DNA of 64,000 bases. It comes from a virus (taxonomy: Duplodnaviria > Caudoviricetes). Numbering within the stretch: position 1 is the first letter of the stretch; every line of letters starts with the position of its first letter. The stretch spans positions 64,001-128,000 of IMG/VR virus record IMGVR_UViG_3300011217_000001; one strand, written 5' to 3'. The notes beneath the pieces were generated by a model. That model saw nothing but the letters and a program-made list of their open reading frames with translations, was not told where the DNA came from and ran no database searches. This document shows, piece after piece, positions 27,801 through 40,200 of the stretch. Position numbers and translations under genes: made by a program.

Positions 27801-27840
27801 GGACATAGAGGGAGGGGCGAAAGCCCCTCCCCTTATGCCG
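27801..27840. terminator. Hairpin between convergent genes (GAAA loop, ACATAG/TATGCCG flanks)
   Basis: GGGAGGGGC-gaaa-GCCCCTCCC. Confidence 0.75.
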
Positions 27841-30584: not shown

Positions 30585-33500
30585 ATGAGCAACCTGCCGC
30601 CCGTCTTTTCGAAGGACAGCGATCGCCGTAAGGCAATGCCGAAGATCGGGTCTTTGAAAAACAGCCCGCAGCTCGGTTCGTTGGTCTCCAAGCTGGTGTA
30701 CGCCAACAGGGAAGTTCAGAACGGCAGCCTGCACCGCCGTCGTGAAGTGAACCTGCCTGGCGATCAGTTCTTCACCAAGCTCAGCGACAACACCGCAACC
30801 AATGTCACCGATTCGGCCAACCTGATGCAGCTGCTGCCGGATCTGCGTTTGAACATGCAGATCATGGTCAGCTCGATCCTGTCCCCGAAGGACATGGTCA
30901 ACGCGAAGTTGAACTATCGCGTCCAGGATGGCATCTTCGACAGCGAGCTTTCCGGCCTGTTGCTGGACGTGGTTTCTACCCACTTCTCGCAAGTCTATAA
31001 GATGGACAGCCGTCTTCCGACATTGTTGGAGGACATCCTGTATCACCGTGGTTCGCGCCCGATGATCATCCTGTCCGAGTCGACGATCGACGACGTCATC
31101 AACAACCCGACCCGCGCTTCCATGGAGTCCGTCAAGATCGCCGTGGAAGGCGCTGACAGCCAGTGTCTGGGTTGGCTGGGCCAACCTCCGGAGAAGTCCT
31201 CAGAGGCCGCCAAGGGCAGCGCTACGGCCGCTGGCGTGGGCTTTGCCATGGAGTCGTTCGGATCGGCCGCTGGTACGGCGCAGGTGCGCTACAACCCGAC
31301 CTTCCAACCCTTCAAGTCGACGGCTGAAAAGCCTACCGGCAAGCTGTTCATCAGTGACAATCCGGAGATGCTGAAGATGCCCGCGCTTGCGCAGGCAGCG
31401 ATCCATCACCGCAGCGATGCTATCCTCAAGCGTCGCAACAATCGCAAGGGTCTGCTGAACCTGCCCAAGGTCACCGTTGCTACCGAGTCTATCGGTGAGG
31501 ACGGCAAGCCCACGTTGCAGGAAGTCCAGTCGGCTCTGTACAGTCAGCGTCGTTACGCCGCGATGCCGGTGCAGACGCTGTACACCCGTGACCAACTGAA
31601 GACCAAGACCAAGGGTCATCCGCTGGTCATCGAAGCGCCGTCGGAAGCTGTGATCCCAGTGTTCGTGCCGTCTGATCCGTCCGATCACATCGGCTACTTC
31701 CTGGTCTGTGACGAACGTGGTCACCTGGTCAACAAGGCCACGCAGGACGACTACTACAACCAGCTCAACCAGAACGTCAACGCGAACAACGACATGATCA
31801 GTCAGCTGATCCAGTCGACGCATCGTGGCACGTTCGGAATGAAGGGCAACAACGAGATCGACGGCGAGTCGCTCCAGCGTGCCTACTCGGATATGGTTGA
31901 GCAGAACATGCTTGCCCGTCTGCGTGCTGGCGCATGCGGTGACAACGTGACCATCGCTCGTCCGGAGGAAGTCTTCCGGATCATGCTTGCTCGTACGCTG
32001 GCTAACCAGGACACGCGTCTGCTGTACGTCCCGGCTGAAATGGTGACCTACTTCGCCATCGACTACAACAAGTTCGGCATCGGTCGTTCGCTGCTGGAAG
32101 ACACCAAGATCCTCGCAGGCATGCGCGCGATCTTGATGTTCGCCAACACGATGGGTTCGCTGCGTAACTCGGTGGGTCGTACGAAGCTGAACATCAAGCT
32201 CGATGAACGTGACGATGATCCGGTGGACACCGTCGAGTTCATCATCGGCGAGTTCTCCAAGAACCGTCAGCAGGCTTACCCGCTGGGCGCTTCCAATCCG
32301 TTGGACATCATCTCCTTCCTGCAGAACGCGGGTGTGGAAGTGGTGGTCAGTGGTAACGATGGCTACCCGAACACGGAAGTCAACGCAGAGGACTTCGCAG
32401 CACAGGTCAACAAGCCGGATCTGGATCTGGACAACCTGCTGCGCAAGAACCACTCGCTGTCACTGGGTATCCCGGTGGAGATGGTGGACAACGCCCAGGG
32501 TCCGGAGTTTGCGACCACGGCAGTGACCAACAACCTGCTGCTGACCAAGCGCGTGATGAAGACGCAGGAACAGTTCTGCCCGCATGTCACCGACTTCGTG
32601 CAGAAGTACACCTACAACTCCGGCACGCTGCTGGATCGTCTGCGCAAGATCATCATCGACAACAAGGCCAAGCTGGGTGACGAGGTTCGTCAGTACATCG
32701 CGTCCCACGGTCAGGAGCTGAACGTCGACAACGTGGTCAAGCTGTTCATTGATGCCATCATCTGTGAACTGCCGTCTCCGGACACGACCAAGGTCAAGGT
32801 TCAGGTCGAGGCTTACAAGGAGTATCGCGAGGCGCTGGACGAAGTGCTGCCGGCCTACATCAGCAAGGAAATGTTCGATGCGGGCAATGACCAGAACACC
32901 GACGTTGCCTCGGCCATCGAAGGACTGGTGGCGCTGACCAAGGCTCACTACCTGCGCCAGTACCTGCGTACCAACAACATCATGCCGGAACTGTTCGACC
33001 TGATGGAGCTGGACGAGAAGGGTGTTGGCAAGGTGGACATCTACGAGTCCTCGGCCGAGCACATGAAGGTGATGTACAAGGTCTTCGGCAAGTACATCGA
33101 CAAGATCCAGAAGCTTGTCGAGAAGCGTGAACCTGAAGACGAAACTCCGCCGGATGACACCCCGCCGGGTGGCGAGGAACCGGGCGCTGGCACCGACGAA
33201 TTCGGTATGGATACCGGAACCGAGGATAACCCTGACGAAACTCAGGATACCGGTGAGGAGGAGGAACAGCAGGAGGACGAAGGGCAGGAAGAAGAGGAGC
33301 AGGAGGAGGACACTGGTGAGGAGGAAGAGGCAGCGGATGATACCACCGATGCTGCTGACACCGGCGAAGCAGAGGAGGAAGCCTCCACTGAATCGATCGA
33401 CAACCTCTACCAGGAAGCCGACGATCGCACCTACTTCTACGATGCTGTGAGTCGTCCGATCAACCCGCTGCTGCGCGCTGCCCACAACATCGAGCCTGAA

Positions 33501-33722
33501 CTGATCGAAGTGAGGGACATGCGCTTCAACCTGCAGCAGGCTGGTTCGCTCTCCCCGCGTCTGGTCACTCGTGCCGACTACAGCTACCCGCTGATCGGCG
33601 TGCGTGAGGAAGATGGCCGTGTGGTCATCCTCGATGGCATGAAGCGTCTTGCTCATGCCAACACCGATGGCGCCTTCCGTCTGCCCGTCAAGCTCGTCTC
33701 GATGGAACAGGCCAAGCGTTAA
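30585..33722 (+). CDS. Portal protein (phiKZ gp129-like) with an acidic linker and a C-terminal ParB/Srx-like extension
   Basis: GGAG RBS. QLLPDL...I.VSSILSPKD, P.EAVIPV..P.DP.DHIGYF, Y.A.DY...G.G.SLLE and EFAT motifs; position divergent from the gp128-like gene. Confidence 0.85.
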   Translation: MSNLPPVFSKDSDRRKAMPKIGSLKNSPQLGSLVSKLVYANREVQNGSLHRRREVNLPGDQFFTKLSDNTATNVTDSANLMQLLPDLRLNMQIMVSSILSPKDMVNAKLNYRVQDGIFDSELSGLLLDVVSTHFSQVYKMDSRLPTLLEDILYHRGSRPMIILSESTIDDVINNPTRASMESVKIAVEGADSQCLGWLGQPPEKSSEAAKGSATAAGVGFAMESFGSAAGTAQVRYNPTFQPFKSTAEKPTGKLFISDNPEMLKMPALAQAAIHHRSDAILKRRNNRKGLLNLPKVTVATESIGEDGKPTLQEVQSALYSQRRYAAMPVQTLYTRDQLKTKTKGHPLVIEAPSEAVIPVFVPSDPSDHIGYFLVCDERGHLVNKATQDDYYNQLNQNVNANNDMISQLIQSTHRGTFGMKGNNEIDGESLQRAYSDMVEQNMLARLRAGACGDNVTIARPEEVFRIMLARTLANQDTRLLYVPAEMVTYFAIDYNKFGIGRSLLEDTKILAGMRAILMFANTMGSLRNSVGRTKLNIKLDERDDDPVDTVEFIIGEFSKNRQQAYPLGASNPLDIISFLQNAGVEVVVSGNDGYPNTEVNAEDFAAQVNKPDLDLDNLLRKNHSLSLGIPVEMVDNAQGPEFATTAVTNNLLLTKRVMKTQEQFCPHVTDFVQKYTYNSGTLLDRLRKIIIDNKAKLGDEVRQYIASHGQELNVDNVVKLFIDAIICELPSPDTTKVKVQVEAYKEYREALDEVLPAYISKEMFDAGNDQNTDVASAIEGLVALTKAHYLRQYLRTNNIMPELFDLMELDEKGVGKVDIYESSAEHMKVMYKVFGKYIDKIQKLVEKREPEDETPPDDTPPGGEEPGAGTDEFGMDTGTEDNPDETQDTGEEEEQQEDEGQEEEEQEEDTGEEEEAADDTTDAADTGEAEEEASTESIDNLYQEADDRTYFYDAVSRPINPLLRAAHNIEPELIEVRDMRFNLQQAGSLSPRLVTRADYSYPLIGVREEDGRVVILDGMKRLAHANTDGAFRLPVKLVSMEQAKR

Positions 33723-33730
33723 TAGGAACT

Positions 33731-33760
33731 GGGAGGCCCTTCGGGGCCTCCCTCTATGTC
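33731..33760 (+). terminator. Hairpin after the portal gene
   Basis: GGGAGGCCC-ttcg-GGGCCTCCC followed by TCTATGTC. Confidence 0.7.
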
Positions 33761-33786
33761 CTGAAGACAAAAAAAAAGAAGACGGT

Positions 33787-33820
33787 AAAAAAGAGCCCAC
33801 CCCCCGGATAGGAGTGGGCT
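33787..33820 (-). terminator. Intrinsic terminator of the 33854 gene
   Basis: AGCCCAC...GTGGGCT stem preceded on the + strand by A-runs (U-tracts on the - strand). Confidence 0.65.
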
Positions 33821-33853
33821 AAAGCGCCTATGTCACCAGGCGATATGAAGTTG

Positions 33854-34852
33854 TTAGGCGATCACGGTCTTGTCGTCGGTCAGATCAGCCAACGTCAGTT
33901 GCACGAACAGATGGTGCGCAACGTTGTTGGCGATACGACCATCATGTCCGCCGATCTCGCGCAGCTTGTTGGCAGCTGCAGTGAACTCGTTGGCCATCAG
34001 CTCATCGTACATGGCCTGGGTATGGAACGGAGTGAGGTCACTGTTGGAACCACTGACCAGATCGTTCAGGCTCAGCACGTACTTGCCGATGAGGTCATTG
34101 AGCAACTTGGTACGGCCTGCCAGCTTGTCGGACTTTGCCAACTTGGCAGGTTCTGCCACAGCACGAGCGATCAGGTCGTTGTAGTCGTCGACGTCGAGGA
34201 TGCTGTCCGGGTTGTCGGTATCCTCCTCGAAGAAGGAGTAGACCCAGTCACCCTCGGTACGGGAGTAGGTGATGGTGAAGCGGATGCCGTCGTTACGCAG
34301 CGCTTCGTTGAGCTTGACACGCAGCGGCAGGTTGATCTGGTCCAGCACGATGTCATGCATGCCACTCGGGACAGTGTAGACGGTCATGAAGAACGTAGTC
34401 TCACGTTCGCCCAGCTCGTCCTTCTTCTTGATCGTAATCGGAGTAATCAGGCCACTCTGGATGCGATCGACAACGCTGATCACGTTGTCATACAGCGGCT
34501 GCCAGTGGACTTCCAGCATGCCAAGGATGATCTTGGCCTGTTCGATGGACTGCACATCCGGATCGAGGTGAGCACGCATGTACAGGCCGGACAGGACCAG
34601 CTCCTGACGGATGGCGAAGGTTTCGTCTTCGGTGGGTTCGGTCTGGAACTCCACGGCAACGAATTCGCCAGGCAGACGCTCCTGCGCCTCCTCGGGACTG
34701 ACGACCAGACGGGTCTCCAGCTTGCGGTATTCCATCCGGTCGTTGAAATGGGCCAGACGGGCACCAATGGTGGCCATCAGGGGAGTACGATCGTAGACGG
34801 TGTTGGTATCGTCTTCGAGGGAGAACATCGGGGTATTCACGGACAACTCCAT
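33854..34852 (-). CDS. Hypothetical, probably virion-associated protein
   Basis: 332-aa acidic ORF with phage codon use. The true start may be GTG at 34840, which has GGAG 6 nt upstream. Confidence 0.75.
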   Translation of the reverse strand: MELSVNTPMFSLEDDTNTVYDRTPLMATIGARLAHFNDRMEYRKLETRLVVSPEEAQERLPGEFVAVEFQTEPTEDETFAIRQELVLSGLYMRAHLDPDVQSIEQAKIILGMLEVHWQPLYDNVISVVDRIQSGLITPITIKKKDELGERETTFFMTVYTVPSGMHDIVLDQINLPLRVKLNEALRNDGIRFTITYSRTEGDWVYSFFEEDTDNPDSILDVDDYNDLIARAVAEPAKLAKSDKLAGRTKLLNDLIGKYVLSLNDLVSGSNSDLTPFHTQAMYDELMANEFTAAANKLREIGGHDGRIANNVAHHLFVQLTLADLTDDKTVIA

Positions 34853-34865
34853 TTAGTAGAAGGCA

Positions 34866-35070
34866 TAAAAGCAAACCCCCGCCACCGTCGCAGAACGGGG
34901 CGGGGGATATGCAGGTTGTAACGTGGGAGGATTAGTCGCAGCGCCCCGGTGGAAGGTGGGGCGGTGCAAACGTCCTACTGGTCAACCGTCGTTAACCAGT
35001 GTAGCTGTGGCTACTGTCACGTCAGGAGCTTTGGCACTAGGAAGGAACCTTAGCTCCACATTATTGCATA
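34866..35070 (-). ncRNA. Candidate structured non-coding RNA with a terminal terminator hairpin
   Basis: Six or seven nested stems found by eye. G-U pairs form only on the - strand. TATG at the 5' end and a GC hairpin plus U-rich tail at the 3' end. Confidence 0.55.
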
Positions 35071-35088
35071 CTGCAGTTTCTTTTTACA

Positions 35089-37293
35089 TCAGCCCATGAT
35101 GTCGACAGGCGACGGCGACAGCACGTAGTGGCTGTTGTTGAAGAAGCCGACCTGCAGATCGTACACCACGTTGTCCTCGGTCACGAGGTAGCGGTGGCAG
35201 AACTCACCACCCACGATCGCCGTGCGCTGAAGCAGACGATCCAGCGAGCTGTGCAGGGCCGGGTACAGCTTCTCCGACACCACACCGCCATTGACCAGGG
35301 ACGGACCCATGTCCGCACTGGACCAGCTCAACAGCGTCACCGACTGGCGACGAGCGAAGACCAGCCAATGCATGCCGGCGCCGGGCTTGCCGTACTCTTC
35401 GGTGTAACGAGCCAGCTCGTCATCCTTGAGCACGCGCATCACGGCGTTGATCACTTCATCGACCTTGGAGTTCAGCAGGTTGGCAGCCGCCACACCGACA
35501 GCCGGCTTGGCCTGCATCGTCTTCAGCAGATCACCGAAGTCGTCAGCTGCGGTATCGATGGTCCAGCTCAGACCCATCGAGTTCTTCAGGACGTAGTTGA
35601 TGCGGGCGGTCAGAGCATCGTTGAGCTGATGCCACAGACGGACCGGCACATCTTCCTGACCCTGCAGCTGGCTGAACTTGGCCAGTGCGGCCTGCACGGT
35701 CTTTTCCTTGCCGATGGCCAGGAACGTACCGATCAGGTTGGCCTCGGTCAAGTGCGGGGTGAGGATGTCGATGTAGAACTCCTTGGGAGTGTCTTCACCG
35801 TCGTTCTCACCGTCCACCGACACCACTTCGGTCATTGCGATGGCCTGAGCCACCGACATGGCCGGAACCGTGGTTGCAACGTCGCCGATATCCATGTCGG
35901 CGCCGAACACCAGCTGGTTGAAGGCGTCTTCATCACCCTCTTCCGCACCTTCCGGCTTGACCGGCTCGGTGCCGACCATCTTTTCGCCCTTCTTGTGCAT
36001 GTTGGCCACCAGATCGTAGCGGGGATCCACACGACCCTGGCGACGCTGATGCTGCGCCTTGGTCTTGAGGTTGTCGTTGGTTTCCAGGTCCAGGTAGTCC
36101 ATGTCTTCGTTGCGCTCTTTCACGATTTCCTCGACACGACCATCCGGATAGATCCGGTGGAACTTGACGAAGAGGTTGGGGTCGTAGACCTGGGCGAACG
36201 GCTGCTCAGGGCTGAAGGTCTTCTTGTAGGTGCTCAGCACTTCCGGAATGACGAAGGAACCGTCTTCCAGATCGACGCGGTCATAGGGACGACCATTGCG
36301 GATGTTCTCGCGCAGGGTTGCATCCTTGTCCGATTCTGCTGCGCTCACGGTACGACCGGCACTACGATCGAACAGCTTCGGCATCGCCGGACCCTTCTTG
36401 GCGTCAGCCTTGCGCTGTGCTTCGTGGTTCTGGTAGTTGCTACCACGCGGCGAGGCATGCAGCTCTTCTTCCACCGCATGCAGGTCGTTGCCAGAGACCT
36501 CTTCCACTGCACTGGAGGAGAACTCACGGCTGCGATCTTCGCGCGGAGTGTCGCGACGGCTACGGCGATCTTCACGATCTGCACGATCGTTCTTGCTGTT
36601 GCTGGCACGAACCGCGCCAGCCATGCCGCCCCGACGGGTTGCCGTTGCTTCTTCTTCTTCATCGCGACGACGCCCACCGCTGTCACGATAGCCACGGGTG
36701 CCGTTGCCATGGTAACCGCCATCTTCACGACCACGGCCACGACCGCCACCACGACGATCATCACGGTCATCGCGGTCACGGCCGCGACCACCACGGCGAC
36801 TGCCACGGTTGAAGTCTTCGATGTCAGCGATCAGATCACGGCCATCTTCCATGGCATCATCGAGTTCACGACCCATGCGACCATCGACGTACTCATCCAG
36901 CTCGCGGTACTTCTCCACGTACAACGCCATGGTGAAGCGCACCACGATCTTGGTAGCCTTGCGCAGGGCCTCGTCGGCCTCCATGCGCTCGCCTTCGTAG
37001 AAGAAGAAGAAGGCTTCGGCAACCGACCCGACCAGACGGTCGTAGTCTTCGTTGTCGAATTCCTGGTCGGCCATCATGTTGTACAGGAAGTTGCGCAGCT
37101 CGTGACGGCCGTACTCTTCCTGCAGCTCACGCAGCACCGTGCCGGCGATCAGCGGCAGGTCGCGCTCGATGGCGCCGGGGACTTGGATATTGGGGATGTA
37201 GCGGTCCGGGATGCGCTCGGGCAGTCCACGGACGAAATAGCCTTTGTCGACAAACTCCGGGTCGACGGGAAGGCGGGAACGAGAACGTGACAT
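35089..37293 (-). CDS. Conserved phiKZ-like protein with a central RG/RD-rich disordered region
   Basis: 734-aa ORF directly downstream of the nvRNAP subunit gene; GGAG RBS; RGGRGRDRDDRDDRRGGGRGRGR tract. Confidence 0.8.
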   Translation of the reverse strand: MSRSRSRLPVDPEFVDKGYFVRGLPERIPDRYIPNIQVPGAIERDLPLIAGTVLRELQEEYGRHELRNFLYNMMADQEFDNEDYDRLVGSVAEAFFFFYEGERMEADEALRKATKIVVRFTMALYVEKYRELDEYVDGRMGRELDDAMEDGRDLIADIEDFNRGSRRGGRGRDRDDRDDRRGGGRGRGREDGGYHGNGTRGYRDSGGRRRDEEEEATATRRGGMAGAVRASNSKNDRADREDRRSRRDTPREDRSREFSSSAVEEVSGNDLHAVEEELHASPRGSNYQNHEAQRKADAKKGPAMPKLFDRSAGRTVSAAESDKDATLRENIRNGRPYDRVDLEDGSFVIPEVLSTYKKTFSPEQPFAQVYDPNLFVKFHRIYPDGRVEEIVKERNEDMDYLDLETNDNLKTKAQHQRRQGRVDPRYDLVANMHKKGEKMVGTEPVKPEGAEEGDEDAFNQLVFGADMDIGDVATTVPAMSVAQAIAMTEVVSVDGENDGEDTPKEFYIDILTPHLTEANLIGTFLAIGKEKTVQAALAKFSQLQGQEDVPVRLWHQLNDALTARINYVLKNSMGLSWTIDTAADDFGDLLKTMQAKPAVGVAAANLLNSKVDEVINAVMRVLKDDELARYTEEYGKPGAGMHWLVFARRQSVTLLSWSSADMGPSLVNGGVVSEKLYPALHSSLDRLLQRTAIVGGEFCHRYLVTEDNVVYDLQVGFFNNSHYVLSPSPVDIMG

Positions 37294-37319: not shown

Positions 37320-38942
37320 TTAACGCCGTTGGATTCTTTGTTGCACGTCATCCAGGATCGGACGAAGCGCGGGCGATCTTTCCACCAGTCCATCGTGGGA
37401 CAGGCGCACGTACACATTGGCGCGGTCCCGACCAGTGGGATCACTCTTAGACATATTTCGGAAACTACCCACCTCGGCCATGGAGGAGTGCAGCTGTCTT
37501 GCCGGGTCGCTCATGCTTCCCTTATTGCCACCACGACCACCCGTTGTACTGGTCTGGGCCACCAGACGCGAGGTAATCTTGAAGACCTTGTTGTCACCAG
37601 GGCACGTTACCGAAGTAACTTCGTTGTGCGTGGGCTGATTGAGCTGGAAGATCAGGTCAGTCCGCAGATTACGCCGAAGCTCGGCGTTGATCTCCTTGGG
37701 ATTCAAGATCGGCTTCTTCGAGTTGCGCAGGTTGAAGCTGAAGTTGTAGATCGCCTTGTTGATGTCAAAGACGATGTACCTCAGGATCACGAACTGCTTG
37801 CCGTACATGCTGGCAATGTCCTTTGCATTACCGGTCAGTCGGCCATGGAAGGTGTCGATCATGTGGAAGAACAGGTCATAGACCGTCTCCACGATCACTC
37901 CATCTTCCAGGAGCTTCTTGCGCGAGTTGCGATCCATGTAGGTGTCGAGCGATGCAAGGTGATCGTCCAACCGCTCCAGGATCTTACCCTCACTCTGGCC
38001 TTCGCCGAACAGGAAGATGCCGAGTGCGAGCTGCCATCGGGTGATGTCAAGTGCGAACTCCAGCGGGAACCGTTCGGGGAAGTGGTCGATGGCATAGAAG
38101 AAACTGCCGACCAGAATGTGCACAGCGTCCGAATAGTTCTCCCGAGGGATTGCCATGCGGATGTCCGAGACCGGATGACCGATCTTCAGACGAACCCCCT
38201 GAGGCTTGATCTGTGCCGAGGAGAAGATCACCCAGTCTTTCTTCGGGTAAGCCTCCTCAGTGATCGTTGCCGAGTCGCCCACGACGATGTTGGTGCCTCC
38301 GTACTGCTTGAAGGTCTCCTCAACGCCATAGCGACAGAACAGGTAGTGTGCCATCGTCGAGTTACCACGGATCGGCTGGCGGGCCAGTTCAGCTTTGCCC
38401 TCCGCCGTGTGGTTGTACAACGAGGCATGGATCAAGTGCGCGTCAACCTGAATGCTGTCACGCATGAAGGTGTAATACATTCGCTCGAAGGTGAGCTTGG
38501 CGCCTTGCAATGGAATGAAGATCGATGTGGCATTGATGCTGAATACCCTGTCCGCCAAAACAGGTGCTACTGCAAACAGCGAGCCACGCAGATACATCAG
38601 ACCGCCGTCCATGACGTTGGGCAGGAAGATGTACCTGGGGTCAAGAGGCTGACCCATGTAACTGAACATGTACTTGTTCAGGTGTGCGCTGGTCTTAGCA
38701 GTTTCCCAAGTCCTTTGGCTGTTGACGCGCTTGGTGATCTCCCTGAACGTCTCCCTCGGGGTACAGCGAACGAATCCGTCGTACTTCAGCCCTTCCGGGA
38801 AACCGGCGGCTGCCGTGCGGAAGATGTCATCCACCATCTTGTCCACATAGGGCACATGCTTGGTTGCCAGGCCGTTGGCAATGTCAGGGTTAAGTCGTGG
38901 AGTGACTTCCCTGAGCAGCCTGGAGTAATGTTTGTCCGTCAT
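37320..38942 (-). CDS. Non-virion RNA polymerase beta-like subunit, N-terminal part (phiKZ gp123-like)
   Basis: N..IANGLA, IFLP...GGL..LRGS...PVLADRVFS and LHSSMAEVGS...KSDPTG..R.N motifs; synteny with the capsid gene. Confidence 0.85.
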   Translation of the reverse strand: MTDKHYSRLLREVTPRLNPDIANGLATKHVPYVDKMVDDIFRTAAAGFPEGLKYDGFVRCTPRETFREITKRVNSQRTWETAKTSAHLNKYMFSYMGQPLDPRYIFLPNVMDGGLMYLRGSLFAVAPVLADRVFSINATSIFIPLQGAKLTFERMYYTFMRDSIQVDAHLIHASLYNHTAEGKAELARQPIRGNSTMAHYLFCRYGVEETFKQYGGTNIVVGDSATITEEAYPKKDWVIFSSAQIKPQGVRLKIGHPVSDIRMAIPRENYSDAVHILVGSFFYAIDHFPERFPLEFALDITRWQLALGIFLFGEGQSEGKILERLDDHLASLDTYMDRNSRKKLLEDGVIVETVYDLFFHMIDTFHGRLTGNAKDIASMYGKQFVILRYIVFDINKAIYNFSFNLRNSKKPILNPKEINAELRRNLRTDLIFQLNQPTHNEVTSVTCPGDNKVFKITSRLVAQTSTTGGRGGNKGSMSDPARQLHSSMAEVGSFRNMSKSDPTGRDRANVYVRLSHDGLVERSPALRPILDDVQQRIQRR

Positions 38943-38970: not shown

Positions 38971-40092
38971 CTAATTCTTGTTGCTGAACATCGAGAACGC
39001 TTTTACGCCTGTGACGATTACACCAATCGCTGTCAGTATGGCTGGCACCGATTTCCAGAACTCAGTATGCTCTTTCCGGGATAGTGAGACCTCTTCAGAT
39101 CGTTCCTTCCTCAGCAGCATTTCCATGCTCCGGTGGTGGTTAATGAGATCAGATTCGCGTTTGATCTCGGTCAAGGTTTGGACGTTCTCCATGTCCTTTG
39201 TCTTGAACTGTTGTGTCGCCTCTTCCCGCTTACGCTCTTGTTCCGCCTTCCAGTCGCCGAGAGATTCGGCGTCACGATAGCTTCCATAGAGTCGATACTT
39301 CTTCCGTGCATCTTCGAGAGTGCACCACTCCAAGACCGGAGAGGATGGGAAGTTAGCACCCGCCGTAGCTGGCGGTCGCGTAAGGACATAAACGCCGTCA
39401 TCTACCCCCGGTACGCTCACAGGGTGGACGTCATGAATGACACCATTGAGATTCAGATACTGCGTGCCGTGCCTGCCGTTATTGTCGACTAGCTTGATGT
39501 TGAATCCGAAGTAGCCTTCTCGGGCTTCTTCTTTGTCTTTGGCATACAGTCGTTCGATATTACTTTCCACAGACCGCGGATGAACAATCACACTGTCCAA
39601 ATCTGCTTCCGAGAAGACCATGTCGACTTCACGGATATAGAACGCACCACCATTGTCCCTAAGGTCTTCCCGAGTGAAGGTGATGTGCAGACTGCGAGTA
39701 CGCCGGAACTTCTCCTGCATCTCTCGCGAATTGTCCAGTGCTTCGATCAGTGCTCTACGCACCCTAGTCTGATTTTCGGCTACTCCAGAAGATACTGAAG
39801 AGATGTCGACATTTACAGAATGATGCCATCTGTAGACGATAACGATCTCAAATACCCCGTCTACCCTCTTACGCGAATAAGAAGGTACACTCGCTTTAAC
39901 CCCCAATACATCAGTCGAATCAACGGTGATCCCGAGACCGTTGTGGAAACTGATGTCCTTACTGTACCAGGAAGGGTTTTCCGCAGCCATTCGCTTGTTT
40001 GATTCCACGCGCAGGTTCTCGCTCTCCCGAGTGACCACTGCACGGAATACTCTACCCATGGCATTCCCTAAAAAGTTGTATGGAACTTCCAA
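38971..40092 (-). CDS. Conserved hypothetical protein (gp122-like) with a coiled coil and a C-terminal hydrophobic anchor
   Basis: Long ORF between the capsid and nvRNAP genes. LY.SY..A...GD motif, charged coiled coil, VPAILTAIGVIV tail. The start is uncertain (TTG at 40092 or a downstream ATG). Confidence 0.75.
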   Translation of the reverse strand: MEVPYNFLGNAMGRVFRAVVTRESENLRVESNKRMAAENPSWYSKDISFHNGLGITVDSTDVLGVKASVPSYSRKRVDGVFEIVIVYRWHHSVNVDISSVSSGVAENQTRVRRALIEALDNSREMQEKFRRTRSLHITFTREDLRDNGGAFYIREVDMVFSEADLDSVIVHPRSVESNIERLYAKDKEEAREGYFGFNIKLVDNNGRHGTQYLNLNGVIHDVHPVSVPGVDDGVYVLTRPPATAGANFPSSPVLEWCTLEDARKKYRLYGSYRDAESLGDWKAEQERKREEATQQFKTKDMENVQTLTEIKRESDLINHHRSMEMLLRKERSEEVSLSRKEHTEFWKSVPAILTAIGVIVTGVKAFSMFSNKN

Positions 40093-40120: not shown

Positions 40121-40150
40121 AACTCAATGATGTATGGTTCAAGATTTTTT
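40121..40150 (-). promoter_or_regulatory. Putative early-type phage promoter
   Basis: The - strand reads AAAAATCTTGAACCATACATCATTGAG, resembling the TACATCAC/TATATTAC core seen at 47570, 57545 and 60130. Confidence 0.45.
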
Positions 40151-40157
40151 GCTTGAC

Positions 40158-40200
40158 GGCATAGAGGAAAAACCAGAGGGGAGGCCGAAGCCTCCCCTCT
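40158..40200 (-). terminator. Terminator of the major capsid gene
   Basis: The - strand reads AGAGGGGAGGC-ttcg-GCCTCCCCTCT-GGTTTTT followed by TATGCC. Confidence 0.8.

Follow-up and report, generated by a model that had tools for sequence, protein, structure and literature searches.

A multi-branched structured RNA of no known family in an intergenic spacer of Xoo-sp14-related jumbo phages

Described RNAs of phiKZ-like phages and the spacer locus

To our knowledge, work on the noncoding RNAs (ncRNAs) of nucleus-forming jumbo phages has so far gone no further than listing transcript ends, in phiKZ, 201phi2-1 and a small number of other phages, and no function is known for any of them. The element described here is of a kind already known, the short UTR-associated ncRNAs of phiKZ-like phages, and represents a new family. 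Like those UTR-derived RNAs, it is intergenic, shorter than 250 nt, in the same sense as its neighbors, carries a phiKZ-type terminator at its 3' end, and is conserved among close relatives without an assigned function; about 225 nt, with no conserved reading frame, separate the upstream stop codon (35089) from the terminator tail (34864). It shares no sequence or positional homology with them, the covariance model matching nothing in the 80-nt gp124/gp125 spacer of phiKZ/KTN4. Published candidates were identified from transcript ends and this element from structure and covariation alone; simple hairpins were described for sRNA005, a plainer design than the four-way junction found here.

Both ends of such transcripts have been studied in phiKZ itself. 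A conserved terminator motif, consisting of a hairpin followed by TTATKYYGT, was mapped there by ONT-cappable-seq (Putzeys et al. 2024, PMC10914365), and the phiKZ late promoter requires all four bases of TATG, with the G as +1, such that single substitutions strongly reduce transcription (PMC4666361).

Two more distant systems also invite comparison. Prompted by nearby head genes, an earlier reading of this DNA from sequence alone (the sequence-only reading) drew an analogy to the prohead (packaging) RNA of phi29 (RF00044), which is likewise phage-encoded, of similar size and built around a multi-helix junction. The element does not fit a phi29-type pRNA: there is no Rfam match to it even at E <= 10, and the element forms a four-way junction, the pRNA a three-way one; by eye, we also found no conserved pair of complementary loops that could support ring formation, the AAGG/CCUU complementarity of our sequence being lost in relatives. 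Terminating riboswitches and the put RNA of phage HK022 share with the element the arrangement of a conserved folded domain just upstream of a terminator and a downstream gene. Unlike these, the element shows no mutually exclusive terminator/antiterminator pairing and no Rfam cis-regulatory match, and the polymerase involved would be the phage's own non-canonical RNA polymerase (RNAP).

The stretch of DNA analyzed here (the window, 64,000 nt) comprises bases 64001-128000 of a 230,357-bp virus record (G000). Its DNA shares ~80% identity with that of Xoo-sp14, a Xanthomonas phage that infects X. oryzae and has a jumbo genome of 232 kb, and the source phage is itself a phiKZ-like jumbo phage of 230 kb. 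The spacer and its two flanking genes, all on the - strand, contain the following features, listed in the direction of transcription.

35089-37293 (-): gp124-like gene upstream of the spacer, 734 aa, phiKZ gp124 homologue, PHROG 15010
35076-35088 (-): A-rich single-stranded tract UGUAAAAAGAAAC, invariant in 7/7 sequences from four lineages and unpaired in consensus folds
35067-35070 (-): TATG, the phiKZ-type non-virion RNAP (nvRNAP) late-promoter core, in the source phage only
35025-35066 (-): sequence-conserved 5' domain, CAAUAAUG followed by a GGAG/CUCC-closed hairpin with a C/U-rich loop; exact fold ambiguous
34919-35024 (-): four-way junction, with covariation in all four helices and the same minimum free energy (MFE) fold in four lineages
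35018-35024 with 34919-34925 (-): closing stem of the junction, covarying
35001-35014 (-): junction arm 1, covarying
34977-35000 (-): junction arm 2, with an invariant CGACGG apex
34928-34976 (-): junction arm 3, whose loop keeps CCACC
34861-34913 (-): phiKZ-type terminator module, with a CAUA flank, a GC hairpin (34876-34906) and a UUUGC-UUUUAUGCCU tail
33854-34840 (-): downstream clade-specific gene, about 328 aa from GTG 34840 (longest ORF 332 aa)

The gp124-like gene has tblastn matches in phiKZ-like phages, and its homology to phiKZ gp124 is distant. Gene order at the locus is the same as in phage KTN4, where KTN4_158 (a non-virion RNAP subunit) is followed by KTN4_159. In the window, the gp124-like gene is the last protein gene of a run made up of a gp122-like gene (38971-40092), an nvRNAP subunit gene (gp123-like, 37320-38942) and itself, which lie head to tail with short gaps only. 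This run is preceded by a terminator module and a promoter-like motif, at about 40130-40200, and the spacer therefore lies at the 3' end of a probable operon of ~5.3 kb.

On the other side of the spacer, the longest ORF of the downstream gene begins at ATG 34852 and overlaps the Shine-Dalgarno-like GGAG at 34847-34850. The true start is probably GTG 34840, which lies 6 nt after this GGAG, is the annotated start in Xoo-sp14 and is conserved in all lineages. The encoded protein has only four homologues among 5.8 billion proteins, with no Pfam or PHROG family and no Atlas neighbor; its AF2 model has a pLDDT of 57.5, and a Foldseek search of BFVD returned only the Xoo-sp14 orthologue and no fold match. 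Past the 332-aa gene, window positions 33730-33850 hold a canonical terminator on the - strand, a hairpin with a long U-run, and then a second hairpin with a CATAG flank that serves the convergent 1045-aa gene (30585-33722, + strand).

Fold, distribution and covariation of the spacer RNA

The - strand of the spacer (34866-35070) folds in ViennaRNA to an MFE of -92.6 kcal/mol, compared to -62.1 +/- 4.7 kcal/mol for 200 dinucleotide shuffles (z = -6.46), none of which folds as well. Every helix named in the sequence-only reading is found in this structure, including the pairing of 35070-35065 with 34913-34908, the hairpin at 35057-35025, the stem formed by 35024-35018 and 34925-34919, the three arms that it encloses, and the GC hairpin at the 3' end. 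Taken by itself, the junction core (34919-35024) reaches z = -6.25 on the - strand, compared to -3.96 on the + strand, and the same four-way junction is the single-sequence MFE fold in three other lineages (z = -3.1, -4.8 and -4.6). G-U pairs on the - strand that would be mismatches on the + strand, also claimed earlier, are numerous in the pair table. The outermost closing stem, UAUGCA/UGCAUA, fared less well: it is present in the MFE structure, but it is specific to the source phage and not found in relatives, and it borrows the invariant CCUGCAUA that forms the CATA flank of the terminator module.

As had been proposed, the element corresponds to no known RNA family. A search with the 4227 models of Rfam 15, which include riboswitches, ribozymes, pRNA, 6S and tmRNA, returned no match at the gathering threshold in the whole window, only chance-level matches in the spacer (E 0.3-10, far below gathering score) and nothing above chance level in the spacers of three relatives. 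ARAGORN found no tRNA or tmRNA genes in the window, and a tRNA cloverleaf was rejected both on this result and because the junction has arms of the wrong length and unsuitable loops. A genome-wide MFE scan (200-nt windows, 100-nt grid) did not rank the element, which the grid split. Other 200-nt windows lie 3.5-3.8 sd below the GC-corrected genome mean folding energy, at genome positions 132501, 141401 and 197701 (+), 85101 (window 21101, both strands), 104101 (window 40101, -) and 28001 (-); additional structured RNAs or clustered terminators may lie there.

Seven sequences of the element, in four lineages, came from scans for patterns, searches with proteins and contig look-ups.

Lineage 1: the window itself (G000)
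Lineage 2: Xoo-sp14 (MT939492; element near 94120-94395, + strand of that record), with L003 and L024
Lineage 3: L013, with L005 and L018 matching it exactly over this stretch; taken from G001 (IMGVR_UViG_3300028187_000371), a record of 234 kb that has terminal repeats
Lineage 4: L017, a Logan contig

A covariance model built from these sequences gave a single copy per genome in the three complete genomes, G000, G001 and Xoo-sp14, no copy in Xanthomonas phage RTH11 or the phiKZ-like phage KTN4, and nothing in 17 other fetched loci. The syntenic spacers of RTH11 and KTN4 are only 64-80 nt long, with the gp124/gp125 spacer of phiKZ/KTN4 measuring 80 nt. Further members were sought by exact-pattern scans of viral and metagenome contigs and by protein searches with both flanking genes; the sole metagenome-contig pattern match was a coding false positive, and a scan of 185,579 prokaryote genomes (one per species) for exact patterns gave no copy. 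Judged from these searches, the element is a clade-restricted, single-copy, new family. The L013/G001 relative occurs in dozens of soil samples.

Covariation among the relatives supports the junction. Counts were made for 46 base pairs of the structure in five distinct sequences from the four lineages. In this alignment, 93.5% of pair cells form standard pairs, compared to 86.7 +/- 1.2% in shuffles, and 13 pairs are changed on both sides, compared to 5.3 +/- 1.6 in shuffles, 0 of 500 of which reach 13; the alignment was fitted to the structure, which inflates pairing somewhat, and it spans four lineages only. Sliding the partners by 1-3 columns leaves just 0-3 doubly changed pairs, and an unfitted MAFFT/RNAalifold analysis already gave 10-11 compensated pairs. 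The support falls in the closing stem and in all three arms of the junction, with arm 1 wholly rewritten between lineages and still a 4-6 bp hairpin. The pairs of the 5' hairpin and of any outer closing stem never vary, which leaves both as predicted folds, and two different folds have been proposed for this part.

Sequence identity to the relatives indicates that different parts of the spacer are under different kinds of selection. Relative to the window, identity at third codon positions is 74-76% for the upstream gene and 58-62% for the downstream one. The 5' 65 nt of the spacer (A-rich tract and 5' hairpin) are 85-88% identical, above this synonymous rate; the junction, at 56-73%, drifts as fast as synonymous sites; and the terminator part is 72-95% identical. 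Taken with the kept pairing, this pattern implies that selection acts on the shape of the junction and on the sequence of the 5' part. Two stretches of the junction are invariant: CGACGG at the apex of arm 2, together with the bases beside it, and CCACC in the arm-3 loop. Open frames of 56-81 aa, stop to stop, do run across the spacer; GC-rich DNA leaves such frames by chance, and because of single-base indels between lineages no reading frame is conserved. The element is a real, strand-specific, multi-branched structured RNA on the - strand.

Start motif, post-stop hairpin and terminator module

The spacer begins, directly after the stop codon of the gp124-like gene, with the A-rich tract UGUAAAAAGAAAC, a candidate processing or protein-binding site. 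Within the invariant 5' domain that follows, a three-codon mini-frame (AUG UGG AGC UAA, window 35059-35048, -) can be read, at whose stop position the relatives keep a stop, UAG; as no Shine-Dalgarno sequence precedes it, the mini-frame is probably incidental.

The earlier proposal that the RNA has its own start motif did not survive comparison. TATG at 35070-35067 is absent from all three other lineages, with Xoo-sp14, L003 and L024 reading TAGA and L013 and L017 reading TACG. The genome holds 485 TATG sites per 460,714 positions, and ~0.25 are expected by chance in the 236-nt spacer. Base composition would predict about 1250 such sites, making TATG ~2.6-fold under-represented in this genome. 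Between the upstream stop codon and the RNA we found no conserved promoter, both a conserved TATG and the 17-nt motif described below being missing.

The relatives differ from the window at this point in one further respect. Directly after the gp124-like stop codon they carry a G-first hairpin, GGGGAGG GAAA CCTCCCC, which the window has lost in a ~28-nt deletion that also shifted the stop codon, from TAA to TGA.

L001 4286-4318 (-), L013 1700-1735 (+), and L017: post-stop hairpin of the relatives, absent at window 35088/35089

This hairpin lacks the TTATG tail typical of real terminators. It could still terminate transcription, in which case the RNA would need an unrecognised promoter. Given the missing TTATG tail and the absence of a conserved start motif, co-transcription with the upstream operon would be the simplest reading.

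At the other end, the RNA was said to have its own terminator. A hairpin-plus-tail terminator is indeed present, but it is an ordinary genome-wide module, a hairpin followed by TTATGCC, that stands in the same form at many gene ends. At the 3' end, the hairpin and the TTTTATGCC tail together make up one copy of this module, and positions 34861-34913 show the published combination of a GC-rich hairpin and a TTATKYYGT-like tail. The match to the phiKZ terminator is confined to the last ~50 nt of the element, which differs from the phiKZ form in having UUUGC (5 nt) between the hairpin and the TTAT tail, where it can extend the stem (GCA/UGC). The terminator is kept in relatives, with G-U wobbles on the - strand. 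Across the genome, 112 of the 485 TATG sites have a GC hairpin ahead of them at a distance of at most 8 nt, compared to about 29 expected from random positions (121 of 2000 had such a hairpin), and the same is true for 51 of 88 TATGCC sites. Most modules consist of CATA, a hairpin and then (C/T)TATGCC(G)T, and are usually flanked by CATA and TATG. The TATG within the terminator tail (34864-34867) might, as a candidate start, restart transcription for the downstream gene.

Additional patterns were noted at gene ends. Modules are often symmetric on both strands, with examples in the window at 40163, 44926, 48874 and 27807 (-) and at 27834, 33755, 44958 and 48903 (+). A 17-nt motif, TTCA(A/G)CC(C)TA(C/T)A(T/C)TACC, occurs in 13 copies in the genome, all on the - strand (genome positions 5748, 11756, 18106, 62514, 121560 [window 57560], 141021, 154298, 162159, 178753, 196007, 197864, 216731 and 224277). 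It often follows a terminator module at a distance of 20-30 nt and is similar to the middle-promoter element of phiKZ, AAanTTACC. In the AT-rich islands there is a variant with TATATAAC that may mark early promoters, and a copy-like sequence is present at window ~40130-40150, ahead of the operon ending in the RNA.

The locus of the G001 relative is contained in 21 soil metatranscriptome runs, four of which we examined as contigs. Three carry the stretch in single 76-234 kb contigs, for which DNA carry-over is possible; near-complete G001 contigs (up to 234 kb) in libraries labelled as metatranscriptomes imply either heavy DNA carry-over or pervasive transcription during active infection. A single 1062-nt contig of the thinnest run reaches from the end of the upstream gene across the spacer into the beginning of the downstream gene; this is no proof of one continuous transcript. 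Candidate RNA targets were also sought. RNAduplex comparison of the RNA to 329 candidate translation-initiation regions performed no better than with shuffled RNAs, and 9-mer seeds complementary to the conserved loops occur at about chance (for the 5' loop, 6 observed and roughly 14 expected). One ribosome-binding site, purine-rich and located at genome 162499-162502, matches the two C/U-rich loops, though not significantly.

Alternative readings and what the RNA may mean for jumbo phages

Starting from the observed structure, strand, selection, single copy and generic terminator, the account we prefer, and hold tentatively, is that of a clade-specific ncRNA forming the tail of the operon. The spacer RNA, a sequence-conserved 5' hairpin followed by the covarying four-way junction in the same sense as its neighbors, would most likely be transcribed together with the gp122-like, nvRNAP-subunit (gp123-like) and gp124-like genes, and its transcription would end at the standard phiKZ-type terminator. 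It may then be released at the invariant A-rich tract and accumulate as an RNA of some 200 nt derived from the 3'UTR, with perhaps a second origin in the source phage at its private TATG. We propose that it acts in trans by binding a protein or RNA partner through invariant single-stranded nucleotides, for which the A-rich tract, the C/U-rich loops and the CGACGG apex of arm 2 are the candidates.

Several other readings share part of this evidence. An independent late sRNA gene, the main proposal of the sequence-only reading, which offered a structural or packaging RNA or a decoy as its possible role, would be transcribed by nvRNAP from the G of TATG (35067) as far as the terminator, a product of ~200 nt. 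This origin would agree with the position of a required phiKZ late-promoter core at 35070-35067 (PMC4666361), with the many short phiKZ RNAs that consist of a start site closely trailed by a terminator (PMC10914365), and with the hairpin that relatives place between the upstream gene and the RNA, as expected of a separate transcription unit. The TATG is not conserved and could occur by chance in a spacer of this length, and no other recurrent promoter motif of the genome lies upstream of the RNA, which leaves this origin unlikely. If the RNA were instead a passive 3' end structure, guarding the operon mRNA against 3' exonucleases or insulating transcription units with no activity of its own, its position at the operon 3' end directly before a terminator would be natural, as would the freedom of most of its sequence to change while pairing is kept. 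Yet other gene ends in this genome manage with a terminator hairpin alone, and only 64-80 nt stand at the syntenic position in phiKZ and RTH11. The invariance of unpaired nucleotides and apical loops, together with the conservation of the 5' 65 nt above the synonymous rate, points to a sequence-specific interaction, and we consider a purely passive role improbable. Least probable by far, and very unlikely in our view, is that there is no RNA element at all and that the spacer folds by chance, is a decayed gene, or serves at the DNA level as an origin or as a site for packaging or recombination. In favor of this, the + strand likewise outdoes its shuffles in folding energy (z = -3.96) and the open frames across the spacer are long, but the compensatory changes and many G-U pairs are specific to the - strand, the frames are broken by indels between lineages, and the element is single-copy with no terminal repeats.

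Control in cis deserves separate treatment. A regulatory leader, which the sequence-only reading had raised for the downstream gene, could set read-through into the 332-aa gene, acting as an attenuator (riboswitch-like or protein-binding) or as an antitermination RNA of the put kind. The layout of structured domain, terminator, and then Shine-Dalgarno sequence and start of the next gene has the right order; the junction, with its invariant apical and linker nucleotides and 13 doubly changed pairs, is as complex as an aptamer; and terminators in phiKZ 5'UTRs yield two transcript modes (PMC10914365). In constrained folding of the consensus and of every lineage, however, blocking the 3' arm of the terminator left its 5' arm unpaired and the junction unchanged, and there is therefore no antiterminator. 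The structural independence of junction and terminator argues against a classical attenuating riboswitch, as do the generic nature of the terminator, the lack of an Rfam riboswitch match, and the loss in L013 and L017, judged by eye, of the sole arm 3/terminator complementarity seen in the window. We thus regard a cis-acting leader as doubtful. A bolder version, which we rate as a long shot, is that the junction is a sensor/effector RNA that tunes termination or read-through by the phage's own non-canonical RNAP in the phage nucleus. It would be riboswitch-like or put-like, binding a metabolite, the polymerase or another phage protein, a specification that belongs to the same long shot.

In conclusion, comparison among relatives supports this candidate unusually clearly and gives it a defined, three-dimensional type of architecture, in which a four-way junction carries invariant nucleotides in its loops. 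The lineage has a cultivable member, Xoo-sp14 on Xanthomonas oryzae, so that expression, partners and phenotype are directly testable. The end of an operon with an nvRNAP subunit gene and a phiKZ-type terminator is a reasonable place in which to seek RNA-based control of the phage's own transcription, or an RNA-protein complex. If the sensor/effector reading were true, no earlier example would be known for the RNAP of a jumbo phage; if the RNA is merely a stabilising tail, it would still be useful for annotation and as the seed of a new RNA family.
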